Shown here: positions 5,495-40,509 of the stretch, piece by piece
Layout of the letters: every line of letters begins with the position of its first letter
Position numbering within the stretch: the stretch's first letter is position 1
Made by a program: the position numbers and the translations under genes
Notes under the pieces: generated by a model
Told to the model about the DNA's origin: nothing
The model's input: the letters and a program-made list of their open reading frames with translations, nothing else
Database searches by the model: none
Origin: Escherichia coli
GTDB lineage: Bacteria > Pseudomonadota > Gammaproteobacteria > Enterobacterales > Enterobacteriaceae
Assembly: GCF_003334255.1 (NCBI RefSeq)
Contig: NZ_QOWU01000048.1
Strand: one strand, 5' to 3'
Length of the DNA: 43,440 nt

Positions 5495-5577
5495 TTATGG
5501 AAACGCCGGGAGCGGGGAAAACTTGCTTTTTCCCGTTTCCGGGGTTGGACAACTGAGCAACGCGAAGGCGTCAGCTA
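5495..5577. repeat. Copy 1 of an ~80 bp hairpin-containing repeat (second copy at about 17475-17552)
   Basis: Shared blocks 'GGAAACGCCGGG' and 'CCGGGGTTGGACAAC.GAGCAA.GCGA.GGCGTCAG' flank a copy-specific hairpin. Lies between the DUF2726-like gene and repA2. Confidence 0.5.
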
Positions 5578-6161
5578 CGATGTTCCGGGGACTGCTGATC
5601 AGCCCCTGTTGTATTCAGCCATTCTCCGGTCATCTGCAGCAGTTTTCTGGCATCGTGGCTTCTGAGCAACGGAATACCAGCCTGCCTCAGAACCTCTTCC
5701 AGAAAAATATCCCGGCGTCTGCGTTCCGGTCGTAAATGTCTGGCATCATCCAGCTCTACTGCTGCAACAATACTGAACGAAAGCCGCTCAACGATAACCA
5801 CATCAACATGCCACTGAGACACCATCCTGAATAACTGCCACCACTGGCGTGATCGTGGCCGGATATTCCCGTTCAGCTGGACGATATCCGCGACCCGTAC
5901 CTGCGGACACAGATACCACCGCTTCATATCCACAATTCTGAACAGTCCTTTCATAAAACTGACTTCCCTTTCTGTCAGCAGCGTCTTCTGACGTTGCCAG
6001 TATTCACCGCCGGACAGTATTCGCTCTGCATCACCGGTCCGTATACCTGCCGCATGCAACTGCATCAGCAAAGGAGAATGCTGATTTACACTTCTGAGGA
6101 TAATCCGGATAAGTAACGCTGCAATAATCAGAACAATGAGAATAAAAATAATCAGCTTCAT
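5571..6161 (-). CDS. N-terminally membrane-anchored protein, probably DUF2726-type, 196 aa
   Basis: Hydrophobic N-terminus (MKLIIFILIVLIIAALLIRIIL) followed by a soluble domain. Occupies the position and has the size of the conserved IncF backbone gene next to the hha-like gene. Domain assignment is from memory, not motif-proven. Confidence 0.5.
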   Translation of the reverse strand: MKLIIFILIVLIIAALLIRIILRSVNQHSPLLMQLHAAGIRTGDAERILSGGEYWQRQKTLLTEREVSFMKGLFRIVDMKRWYLCPQVRVADIVQLNGNIRPRSRQWWQLFRMVSQWHVDVVIVERLSFSIVAAVELDDARHLRPERRRRDIFLEEVLRQAGIPLLRSHDARKLLQMTGEWLNTTGADQQSPEHRS

Positions 6162-6198
6162 TGTTTATCTGCTCCTGGTAATTAATTATGCTGAATTA

Positions 6199-6408
6199 TT
6201 ACCTTACATATTTCCATATCTCTTTTGGTATCCTGTCATATAACTTTCCGGTGATTAATTCCGCTAACCGGTGGTCTGCTGCTGAATTAAATGATTCACG
6301 TTCACTGGTTGATAAACTGTCTCTGTTTTTATGAATAATTTTTTCCAGCGTATTGACTGATGAACATCGCCGTAACTGATACAGCCATTCCTGTTTTGTT
6401 TTTGCCAT
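6199..6408 (-). CDS. Hha/YmoA-family expression modulator (RmoA-like), 69 aa
   Basis: ...[22 protein letters not shown]...[30 protein letters not shown] closely parallels Hha ([23 protein letters not shown]...[22 protein letters not shown]). Confidence 0.85.
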   Translation of the reverse strand: [69 protein letters not shown]

Positions 6409-6453
6409 TTTTATTCCCGCTGAGAACAGATGAATGATAAGATTGCCAGCGCT

Positions 6454-6915
6454 TTATTTACGGTGTCTCCATATCCAGGGGGGAACCGGATCAGCATCTG
6501 ACCAGAGCCCACGTTTTTGTTGTCTGGCTTCGTTCTGAAAGACAGGCAGCGCGGGATCTGTGTTGTACTGCTCATATACCCAGGCAGCCCCGGCCCGGAC
6601 CATAAACTGATTAACATTCATTCCGTCTGGTGCATAAACCTGCCCGAGAATACGACCATAACGATCTCGCTGAAAATATGTGACGGTAACCGTTTTTCCT
6701 GCAACCAGTGATTTCATCATGTCTGTCGACCACCGGCCATAATCCTGTTTCTTTTCCGGTGCATCAATATTTACCAGCCTGATCCGCACCGCCTTCCGTG
6801 AGTCCATGACCTCGATGGTATCACCGTCCAGTACACGAACAACCCGTCCATGAATATCTGCACACAATACCGGCCATGAAAAGATAAATAATACCAGTGG
6901 AATATATTTCCTCAT
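6454..6915 (-). CDS. Secreted thermonuclease (staphylococcal nuclease/SNase-like), about 153 aa
   Basis: Signal-peptide-like N-terminus (MRKYIPLVLFIFSWPVLCA) followed by SNase-like blocks ('DGDT', 'RIRLVNIDAPE', 'YGR', 'GLWSD'). Start trimmed to the ATG at 6915, which has a GGAGA RBS. ORF-track start at 6975 is an over-extension. Confidence 0.8.
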   Translation of the reverse strand: MRKYIPLVLFIFSWPVLCADIHGRVVRVLDGDTIEVMDSRKAVRIRLVNIDAPEKKQDYGRWSTDMMKSLVAGKTVTVTYFQRDRYGRILGQVYAPDGMNVNQFMVRAGAAWVYEQYNTDPALPVFQNEARQQKRGLWSDADPVPPWIWRHRK

Positions 6916-6993
6916 GTTATTCTCCATATCAGATAAATAGCACCTGTATTTCATGCATCCTGAATATTGCAGCACACACTGAATAACACCTTA

Positions 6994-7015
6994 TTTTGTG
7001 AAATTAATCACAAAA
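6994..7015. promoter_or_regulatory. CRP-like palindrome TGTGA-N6-TCACA upstream of the nuclease gene
   Basis: Sequence TTTTGTGAAATTAATCACAAAA has perfect TGTGA/TCACA half-sites with a 6-nt spacer, about 90 bp upstream of the nuclease ATG. Confidence 0.35.
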
Positions 7016-7472
7016 TATAAAATCACGACTTAATACGGAAAAAACTCTGTGCTACTCAGAACTGTCCGGTCATACTTCCCGACCGGATATTAAAAAAAGC
7101 AAATCTCATGCATTATTCAGCCTTCTGAATCCCTGGAGTAATGAAGGCTGCTTTTTCGTTACACCCTTCCCCGGCAGCGCCGGTGGCAGTGTTCAGCCCT
7201 TTTTCGGGCAAACTGCTGCCAGTCTGTCCGGGGAGCAGACTGCGCAGCCCGTAGCCATGCCTCAGCGGCTCCCGGCCAGTCCCCCCTGACTTCCAGCCGG
7301 ACAGCCCGGCGTCCGACCTGCCGGTAGCGCCATACCCCGGAGTTTTGCGAATCACGCCCTGTTCCGTTCATTTTCCTTCCCCCTTTAATCCAGGCCGGTG
7401 AATGTGTTATAAATTTTTATAACCTTCTTCTGCCGGGTATGGAAGAAGGTTTCAGAGAAGCCTTATTTTTCC

Positions 7473-7504
7473 GCCTCCTTTAGTGTGAAGGAGGCTTTTT
7501 TATT
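7473..7504 (+). terminator. Intrinsic-terminator-like hairpin (GCCTCCTT-N8-AGGAGGC followed by TTTTTTATT) at the finO 3' end
   Basis: Perfect 7-8 bp GC-rich stem followed by a T-run on the plus strand. Overlaps the finO stop codon. May terminate plus-strand read-through or act bidirectionally. Confidence 0.4.
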
Positions 7505-8060
7505 GTTCATCAAGCACGGCCTGAAGTTCTGCCTTTATCCGGTTCTGGCGGCGGATTTTATCCAGACGCTCTGCCGCATACACTTCTTCCTCCTGAGAAA
7601 TATGCTCCGTCACATACCCTTCCGTGTCATACCGGCAGGCACCGGCTTTCATGGCACACAGATAGCTTTCTGAACGGGTGATGGCCTTCAGCGCCCTGCG
7701 CAGTTTTTTATGCGAGAGCGGGATATTCCGCTGCGCCACGTCTTCCAGTAACACGTCCCGGATACCGCAGGCCAGAAGTCGGGGTGTGTCACCGTCAAAT
7801 AATCCCGGCCACCAGGGTTTCAGGGTGTTCACGGCCTCATCCAGCGAGGGCAGGTTCAGATAAATGGACAGCGCCTGTCTGGCCTGCGCTTTTTTTGCTG
7901 TCAGCTCTGCTTCCCGGGCAGCCTTCTCCGCCAGTTTCTGCTTTTTCACCTTCCATTTTGGTGGCGTGGTGACATTGATGATGGTTTTCCGGCTCCGGGT
8001 CGGTGTTTCCCCTTCCGTTTTCCGTTTCAGTGTCAGTACCGGTCGTTTCTGCTCTGTCAT
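7500..8060 (-). CDS. finO: FinO fertility-inhibition RNA chaperone, 186 aa (intact)
   Basis: [25 protein letters not shown]... with a Lys/Arg-rich N-terminus matches FinO. Full length, with no IS interruption. Confidence 0.9.
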
Positions 8061-8162: not shown

Positions 8163-9023
8163 TTAAAGATGTTTTTTAAACCATTGCGTCTGTACTGCCG
8201 CCACACGTTCAAAAAACGCGCCTTCATAAATATCATAATGGCATGCGTCAGCTTCCTCGTATAATTCCTTAGTACCAGAAGCAACAGCATCATATAAGGC
8301 TTTTCCCTGTTCTGGTGGATTAACACTATCCTGGCCGGCAATAACAATCAAAACTGGGCACTGTACTTTGGCTGCGCTCTCTGCCGGTTTATATTGCAAC
8401 GTCTCCATAACCGTAAGGAAAGGTATTTTTATATCCATTTCAGGATACTGACCTTTTACCTTCTCGAAGAATACCTTTGATTCATTATCACTCAGTACCC
8501 GGGTAACCCCCACAAACATCTCTTTCCCGGTGTTTTTCTTCTTCTCTGCCATTTTATTCAGCGTGGACAGAAAAGACGCTCTCTCCGATTCATTCATCTC
8601 TCCGGTAACCAGAACATCACCGTCAGCAAAAGCCAGCTGGCTGACAATACATTTTACGCGTTGGTCCTGCGCAGCTGCACTGAAGACATGCCCCCCTCCC
8701 AGCGATGTTCCCCATAACCCAATACGCTGATTATCAATACATTCCTGCTTTTCTGCCCAATTGATAACTGAAATAATATCTTCGGTCTGCATTGCAGGAA
8801 CCAGACGCCCTCGTTCTCCATCACTCTCACCGAATCCTCGATAATCAAAAGTAATCGTTGCGAATCCTGCTTCTGTGAAGGCATTCGCAAAGCAAGGGAG
8901 CAGAACATTCCTGATACCGCAAAACCCATGGCATAAGATAATCAAAGGATGTTTTATATTTCCTTCAGGAACACGAAATGTCAGGGCAATACCTTCAGAG
9001 AGTTTGTGATCCGTAATTTTCAT
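8163..9023 (-). CDS. Alpha/beta-hydrolase-fold protein (esterase/dienelactone-hydrolase-like), 286 aa
   Basis: Nucleophile elbow 'GLWGTSLGGG' (G-x-S-x-G), 'HGFCG' oxyanion region, and C-terminal Asp/His candidates. Sits between traX and finO, where F-like plasmids carry variable cargo. Confidence 0.75.
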   Translation of the reverse strand: MKITDHKLSEGIALTFRVPEGNIKHPLIILCHGFCGIRNVLLPCFANAFTEAGFATITFDYRGFGESDGERGRLVPAMQTEDIISVINWAEKQECIDNQRIGLWGTSLGGGHVFSAAAQDQRVKCIVSQLAFADGDVLVTGEMNESERASFLSTLNKMAEKKKNTGKEMFVGVTRVLSDNESKVFFEKVKGQYPEMDIKIPFLTVMETLQYKPAESAAKVQCPVLIVIAGQDSVNPPEQGKALYDAVASGTKELYEEADACHYDIYEGAFFERVAAVQTQWFKKHL

Positions 9024-24141: not shown

Positions 24142-24259
24142 GTTAAACTCCGGTTATTATTTACATGAGAGTATTTATGTCTGTAATATTCGCGTTTGTG
24201 TGATATTAATCAGATCAACCTCATTATTTTGTATGGTTTTTATTACCGTTTTATATGAC

Positions 24260-40395: not shown

Positions 40396-40509
40396 CAATT
40401 TTTAACGTGGCATTAACCACGTAATTAATATACTAATTATCTGACGTATTGTCATCTTTTTGAATCATAAAAATTCTTATATTTGAACCAACTCAAACTT
40501 CATTTTCAT

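Follow-up and report, generated by a model that had tools for sequence, protein, structure and literature searches.

What does a perfect CRP-type palindrome do upstream of a nuclease gene on a conjugative plasmid? The palindrome considered here lies in a window of 43,440 bp (the whole stretch of Escherichia coli DNA that was analysed), and a reading made from the letters alone had proposed that it places a secreted nuclease under cAMP-CRP control and so could link its expression to nutritional state. That CRP is able to bind here stands. Control of the nuclease by cAMP-CRP is a hypothesis, and the existing evidence leans against simple activation.

The palindrome and its genetic context

The 22-mer TTTTGTGAAATTAATCACAAAA occupies window positions 6994-7015, and its core (6997-7012, centred on 7004.5) reads directly as TGTGA (6997-7001), AATTAA (7002-7007) and TCACA (7008-7012). 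The TGTGA and TCACA pentamers are fully symmetric (10/10 over the core) and both match the consensus, better than the lac site does. The AATTAA spacer is non-palindromic; spacer palindromy is not required by the CRP consensus. TGTGA-N6-TCACA specificity is not known from any other enterobacterial factor. The palindrome recognised in the sequence-only reading is present as described and is the only perfect match in the window, where dinucleotide-preserving shuffles give a chance mean of 0.04 (at least one perfect site in 4 of 100 shuffles). When one mismatch is tolerated, 3 sites are seen against 1.7 expected; as this count is near chance, it is the perfect site alone that is remarkable. The one-mismatch CRP-like sites include TGTGAAGGCATTCGCA at 8874-8889 and TGTGATATTAATCAGA at 24199-24214, their number lying within chance expectation. 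The 200 bp around the palindrome (6900-7099) form a local trough of 34% G+C.

On the minus strand, the site faces a gene for a 153-aa nuclease of the SNase family (thermonuclease-like; 6454-6915, ATG at 6915). The protein matches Pfam PF00565 over the full length of the model (E = 1.1e-30, residues 44-140, model positions 1-107 of 107), and RefSeq labels it "thermonuclease family protein" on matching plasmids, in keeping with the name first given to the gene. Matches to the NCBIfam models of EcnA and NucI are weak and fall under their cut-offs. By eye, the N-terminal residues (MRKYIPLVLFIFSWPVLCA/DIHG) resemble a Sec signal peptide. From the centre of the site to the ATG is 89.5 bp, which agrees with the initial figure of about 90 bp. 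In most copies an in-frame ATG is found 4 codons upstream of the annotated start (MENNMRKY..., 6927), over the Shine-Dalgarno sequence of that start.

The gene for Hha, an H-NS co-modulator (minus strand, 6199-6408; NCBIfam NF008191, 97.9 bits against a cut-off of 90), begins 45 bp downstream of nuc; in R100 this gene is named rmoA. A DUF2726-domain gene (minus strand, 5571-6161), identified from the annotation of R100 and p666, follows. Inspection of the nuc, hha and DUF2726 junctions found no promoter-like or terminator-like consensus, so a nuc-hha-DUF2726 operon can reasonably be inferred, and hha is probably co-transcribed with nuc. The overall minus-strand order is finO (7500-8060), an ANR-family gene (7159-7371), the intergenic site, the nuclease gene, hha, the DUF2726 gene and repA2/copB.

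The other side of the site is also occupied. The sRNA AS-pc02 (RF02876) is matched on the plus strand at 7079-7262 by the full-length model (cmscan 229.5 bits against a threshold of 40, E = 2.6e-60), its 5' end at 7079 being the boundary of the Rfam model. AS-pc02 diverges from nuc and is antisense to the 3' part of the gene for an ANR-family (AraC-negative-regulator) small regulator (minus strand, 7159-7371; NCBIfam NF033650, 40.1 bits against a cut-off of 32, and RefSeq annotation). Because AS-pc02 is encoded on the plus strand, the CRP site lies in a divergent control region and not merely upstream of the nuclease.

The locus was rightly taken to be plasmid-borne: the window contains CopA, FinP, the traJ 5' UTR and finO, with further Rfam matches to AS-traI and AS-traG, and R100 has the same intergenic region at 100% identity. 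The sequence is that of a conjugative plasmid of the IncFII, R100-like type.

CRP binding in vitro and occupancy in vivo

Does CRP recognise the palindrome? For identical DNA the answer has been in print since 2015. The plasmids p948 and p666 of ETEC H10407 were scanned with a CRP matrix using PREDetector (Haycocks et al., 2015, PLoS Pathog; PMC4287617), and the top-scoring plasmid site was ttttgtgaaattaatcacaaaa, with a score of 13.78 and ETEC_p666_0090 as its target (Table S1, PMC4287617); the binding threshold of the matrix score was ~10 (PMC4287617). The ETEC_p666_0090 22-mer is identical to window 6994-7015, and p666 agrees with window 6890-7170 at 100% identity over 281 bp. In EMSA with purified CRP, the p666 22-mer is listed as "Bound in vitro: Yes" (Table S1, PMC4287617). 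Both published EMSA oligonucleotides map exactly, to window 6951-7015 and 6913-6977, so the 103-bp EMSA fragment is window 6913-7015 base for base, from the site to the nuclease ATG. As far as binding goes, the earlier proposal of a CRP site is borne out by this published assay. The binding is specific, because a natural variant of the site with 2 mismatches, TATGAAATCAATCACA, which belongs to a second, diverged version of the region elsewhere on p666, was not bound by CRP in vitro (score 11.82; PMC4287617).

The one dataset on in vivo CRP occupancy that was found comes from the same study. In ChIP-seq of CRP-3xFLAG from mid-log cells in M9 with 1% fructose, a high-cAMP condition, no CRP was detected on p666 or p948 (PMC4287617). 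Five plasmid sites, the 22-mer of the window among them, were bound in vitro, and all lie in H-NS-occupied DNA (PMC4287617). At estA2, H-NS blocks activation by CRP, and the CRP target works once H-NS is relieved (PMC4287617). Full-text literature searches with the site sequence and the p666 locus tags returned no paper beyond PMC4287617. The site, its score, its binding in vitro and its missing occupancy in vivo are thus already known; what is added here is the divergent sRNA context, the geometry based on transcription start sites (TSSs), a population survey and the finding that copies with and without an intact nuclease keep the site equally often.

How might a site that is bound in vitro and empty in vivo be used? 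The reading that we prefer, at a probability of roughly 0.45, is that the palindrome is a real CRP operator, cryptic under H-NS in ordinary growth and able to modulate nuc, possibly with hha, up or down when silencing is relieved. cAMP-CRP would here have a high-affinity site in the AT-rich divergent region between nuc-hha-DUF2726 (minus strand) and AS-pc02/ANR. The site would be conditionally cryptic, CRP gaining access only upon relief from H-NS (for example through osmolarity or H-NS loss), a proposal modelled on estA2. Once the site is accessible, CRP would modulate the minus-strand nuc and probably the co-oriented hha too. If CRP does control the locus, carbon status would feed into the expression of the plasmid nuclease and probably of the plasmid Hha. 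The site chiefly illustrates a principle already published for ETEC, namely that H-NS can keep high-affinity transcription-factor sites on horizontally acquired AT-rich DNA unoccupied.

Promoter geometry on the nuclease side

Where would CRP sit relative to a nuclease promoter? A heuristic matrix scan, indicative only since its frequencies are approximate, proposes on the minus strand a TATATT -10 with a TTTTCC -35 (start ~7007, CRP at +2.5), a CAAAAT -10 with a TTTATA -35 (start ~6986, CRP at -18.5) and the extended -10-like element TGCAATATT at 6963-6971 (start ~6956, CRP at -48.5). Direct reading adds TGcTATTTA (minus strand; start ~6927, CRP at -77.5). The extended -10 candidate at 6963-6971 takes the form of GATATT and AATATT variants in 42/60 unique copies, and TGcTATTTA is the window allele, most plasmids having CATTTA. 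These starts, which are predictions and not mapped TSSs, put CRP at none of the canonical positions, near -41.5 for class II and near -61.5, -71.5, -82.5 or -92.5 for class I. A class I arrangement with CRP at -61.5 from nuc was considered and rejected, the corresponding -10 window (6956-6948) holding no hexamer with A at -11 and T at -7. Because canonical positions are missing and two of the candidates overlap the site, repression or anti-silencing would be at least as likely as class I/II activation.

What is known of transcription on this side? The supplements of the EHEC dataset PMC10469882 give no nuclease TSS, and literature searches yielded no crp-mutant or reporter data for the nuclease promoter. 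The only TSS map found to cover the CRP-site region is a dRNA-seq study of Shigella flexneri M90T, for which the cells were cultured at 37 C in TSB up to OD 0.3 (PMC7132871). On its plasmid pWR100, where nuc is a truncated pseudogene, no minus-strand TSS was mapped in TSB from the CRP site to the nuc ATG, and the nearest one (105332) is within the nuclease ORF. This silence fits a silenced or cAMP-dependent nuc promoter; H-NS silencing, cAMP dependence and pseudogene decay account for it equally well.

Distribution and conservation of the site

The 211-bp intergenic region is widespread, occurring in 3684 PLSDB plasmids and in 2897/5426 complete E. coli genomes, where it is nearly always plasmid-borne. 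Carriers include pO157 Sakai (with nuc, hha and ANR intact), Shigella pWR100/pWR501, R100 and ETEC p666. A scan of the genome collection hit only three contigs, all labelled as Lachnospiraceae MAGs; that they carry this enterobacterial IncF region is probably a binning artefact. The window allele of the nuclease-side block is found in only 27 plasmid records.

To what extent is the palindrome itself maintained? Metagenome contigs were scanned with the plus-strand terminator hairpin ~120 bp away, which avoids ascertainment on the site, and gave 120 instances with 75 unique upstream sequences. A perfect TGTGA-N6-TCACA is present in 100 of the 120 (83%); the pentamers carry one mismatch in 11 instances and two in 8 (the TGTGATCAATTCGACA lineage), and a single instance has no site. 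Polymorphism within the site falls mostly on spacer positions 7002 and 7005, each pentamer position varying in <5% of unique sequences.

Is this degree of conservation a sign of function? Under a 5+6+5 mask the CRP pentamers rank 40th of 184 offsets in the region, and among near-exact plasmid records the 34-nt block with the site (3114) is nearly equalled by the plus-side block 7028-7061 (2610). Since much of the plus-side flank is likewise conserved, conservation is compatible with function and is not specific evidence for it; as a criterion it was set aside as not discriminating, the pentamers being kept in 83% of instances but the plus-side flanks being conserved too.

Nor is retention of the site tied to the nuclease. 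Of the metagenome instances that extend 800 bp or more towards the nuclease, 37/106 sampled copies have a truncated or absent nuclease ORF, and the perfect site accompanies 56/69 full-length ORFs (81%) versus 32/37 truncated or absent ones (86%). On several complete plasmids, too, a nuclease remnant stands beside a preserved site and sRNA/ANR side. In a sister IncF lineage the nuclease is kept (84% identical at the DNA level) and the homologous place reads TGTGATCAATTCGACA, with the right half-site broken. This half-site is disrupted at a base regarded as critical in established CRP-DNA studies. On IncK, IncI-gamma, IncX3/X5 and IncI2 plasmids the nuclease homologues either have no upstream CRP site or lie inside transfer operons, so CRP control is not a conserved trait of plasmid nuclease genes. 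The broader proposal of CRP control as a general feature of plasmid SNase genes was rejected, there being no upstream site with two or fewer mismatches bar one weak 2-mismatch match on IncI-gamma.

Could the palindrome then be functionally inert? It would in that case be a fortuitous or relic CRP-like sequence in AT-rich, H-NS-coated acquired DNA, able to bind CRP in vitro but without meaningful occupancy in the cell, and common only through hitch-hiking on a very successful and recently spread IncF backbone. This is the strongest competitor, and we consider it possible, if unlikely. It is in line with the empty ChIP-seq profile of the plasmid at high cAMP (PMC4287617), with a conservation no higher than that of neighbouring sequence, with a site that persists whatever the integrity of nuc and decays in deeper paralogues, and with distances to the mapped and predicted starts that are all non-canonical. 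It sits less well with the rarity of a perfect match to both pentamers (0.04 per window), with the concentration of polymorphism in the spacer and not in the pentamers, and with estA2, another H-NS-masked plasmid site, which is a functional CRP target after H-NS relief (PMC4287617).

The divergent side: AS-pc02 and ANR

Might CRP act in the other direction? The pWR100 map places plus-strand TSSs at 105556 (primary) and 105547 (secondary) (PMC7132871), and the identical CRP 16-mer is inside the 100-nt upstream sequences of both. The listed upstream sequence leaves out the TSS base, as checked against the pWR100 record, and the window equivalents are C7084 (primary) and C7075 (secondary), in agreement with the 5' end of AS-pc02 at 7079. 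This puts the CRP centre at -79.5 relative to the primary start and at -70.5 relative to the secondary one. CATACT (plus strand, 7071-7076), 7-8 nt upstream of the mapped TSS, is the likely -10 of the AS-pc02 promoter, for which neither reading nor the heuristic scan recognised a good -35.

A second plus-strand element overlaps the palindrome itself. TTGTGA (6996-7001) stands 16 bp from TAAAAT (7018-7023), the whole spanning 6996-7023 with a predicted start at ~7030, and this is the sole consensus promoter match in 6400-7600 and the one with the top heuristic score. CRP, centred at -25.5, would occlude this element, because its -35 is the left CRP half-site. TAAAAT is kept in 59/60 unique copies, and pWR100 reads TAAAAA. 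No TSS was mapped near 7030 in the pWR100 dRNA-seq, a result that is uninformative because the putative -10 there is TAAAAA and pWR100 is the sole dataset.

It is therefore worth considering that the target of CRP is on the plus strand, where CRP would modulate AS-pc02 in a class I-like manner or repress the TTGTGA-16-TAAAAT element, tuning ANR and the antisense RNA. The only mapped TSSs within 100 bp of the site are indeed 7084 and 7075, and a -10 without a recognisable -35 is common in activator-dependent promoters. The spacing between the CRP centre and the AS-pc02 -10 (66.5 bp) is constant in 57/60 unique copies, whereas the distance from the CRP centre to the nuc ATG takes values between 88.5 and 92.5 bp; when nuc is deleted, it is with the sRNA/ANR side that the site remains. 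The near-invariant TAAAAT and the rank of TTGTGA/TAAAAT as the best-scoring promoter-like element of the region point the same way. Class I positions in established spacing studies include -72.5 and -82.5, and -79.5 is ~3 bp out of phase with them. TSB contains glucose, and since the TSS is active in this medium, the AS-pc02 promoter appears to have no strict need of high cAMP. No CRP was found on the plasmid in vivo (PMC4287617), which weighs against this side as well. Overall we think a plus-strand target improbable, and more so than an inert site.

A wider reading takes in both strands. The region might form a hub of CRP/H-NS competition, in which a cAMP input would tune Hha (RmoA), the periplasmic nuclease, the ANR anti-silencer and the antisense sRNA; we hold this to be a long shot. 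If it were true, carbon status and osmolarity would jointly tune IncF xenogeneic silencing and conjugation. Least probable of all is that the site serves another recogniser (a plasmid-encoded regulator, or plain sigma-70 with TTGTGA as -35) and resembles a CRP site incidentally: TTGTGA 16 bp from TAAAAT does read as a promoter, and the sister lineage keeps the left half-site and the surrounding bases and loses the right half, but CRP binds identical DNA directly in vitro (PMC4287617), and the -10 at 16-bp spacing is not conserved in the sister lineage (AGATGA).

Two further features mark the start and the body of the sRNA. Direct reading identifies an intrinsic-terminator-like hairpin, CAGCCTTC...GAAGGCTG, with a T run (plus strand, 7118-7156), just outside the ANR stop codon; its stem is invariant or altered only to G-U in 10 variants. 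Because the hairpin falls inside the 185-nt Rfam span, a short AS-pc02 is possible: there may be a terminated form of ~73 nt that stops short of overlapping ANR coding DNA, alongside an antisense form produced by read-through. The inverted repeat CCGGTC-N9-GACCGG (7066-7086) spans the -10 and TSS of AS-pc02. One C-G pair is changed to T-A in two diverged copies, the p666 copy reads CTGGTC...GGCCAG, and the sister lineage has a different palindrome instead, CTGGTCAG-N5-CTGACCAG. With its symmetry kept by paired changes, the repeat looks like an operator or a hairpin. The idea of a 7066-7086 hairpin as part of a 7030-7155 sRNA is unsupported, the mapped TSS at 7084 being within its right arm.

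Comparison with known CRP systems

The closest known case is ETEC_p666_0090, which is the same element with an identical gene arrangement towards the nuclease (repA2, DUF2726, hha, nuclease, site). Differently to the R100-like window, p666 carries an extra PIN-domain gene and a diverged second copy between the site and ANR/finO. The published work on ETEC_p666_0090 covers in vitro binding and in vivo occupancy (PMC4287617). The second copy of the intergenic/sRNA region (p666 5650-5975) is ~70% identical and lies upstream of the PIN-domain gene, and p666 has a further ANR-like ORF, which is truncated.

PestA2, from which the ETEC heat-stable toxin gene is transcribed, offers the nearest functional parallel: its CRP site is plasmid-borne, AT-rich and high-scoring, and it binds CRP in vitro but shows no occupancy in ChIP-seq and lies under H-NS (PMC4287617). 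However, PestA2 is a class I promoter with a mapped TSS, at which CRP activation and H-NS antagonism were established by lacZ fusions, whereas the nuclease geometry is only predicted and is non-canonical. Classical class I and class II promoters (lac P1 at -61.5, galP1 at -41.5) share the recognition sequence, but the window site is at -79.5/-70.5 from a TSS on the other strand and at no canonical distance from a predicted nuclease promoter.

The CRP site of traJ in F-like plasmids belongs to the same backbone and likewise ties plasmid functions to cAMP; the traJ promoter of pRK100 also has a CRP site. The p666 traJ site was bound in vitro (PMC4287617). Unlike the palindrome, it is at a separate locus and is a much weaker match. 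Its counterpart in the window, ATATTTGAACCAACTCAAACTT (40479-40500), lies upstream of traJ and differs at 3/22 positions from the p666 site, the version to which the in vitro binding refers.

The neighbourhood of the palindrome invites a last remark. Modulators of silencing and RNA (the ANR regulator, Hha and FinO) are clustered between finO and the replicon, amid the nuclease and DUF2726 genes, and this cluster (5571-7371) may work as one module instead of being an assortment of unrelated cargo. In Salmonella pSLT the finO-replicon slot (pSLT 1-1200) has no CRP site, the AS-pc02/site region is missing altogether, and a PLD-family "phospholipase D" nuclease takes the place of the SNase gene. 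Unrelated nuclease families, SNase here and PLD in pSLT, share the same backbone position.
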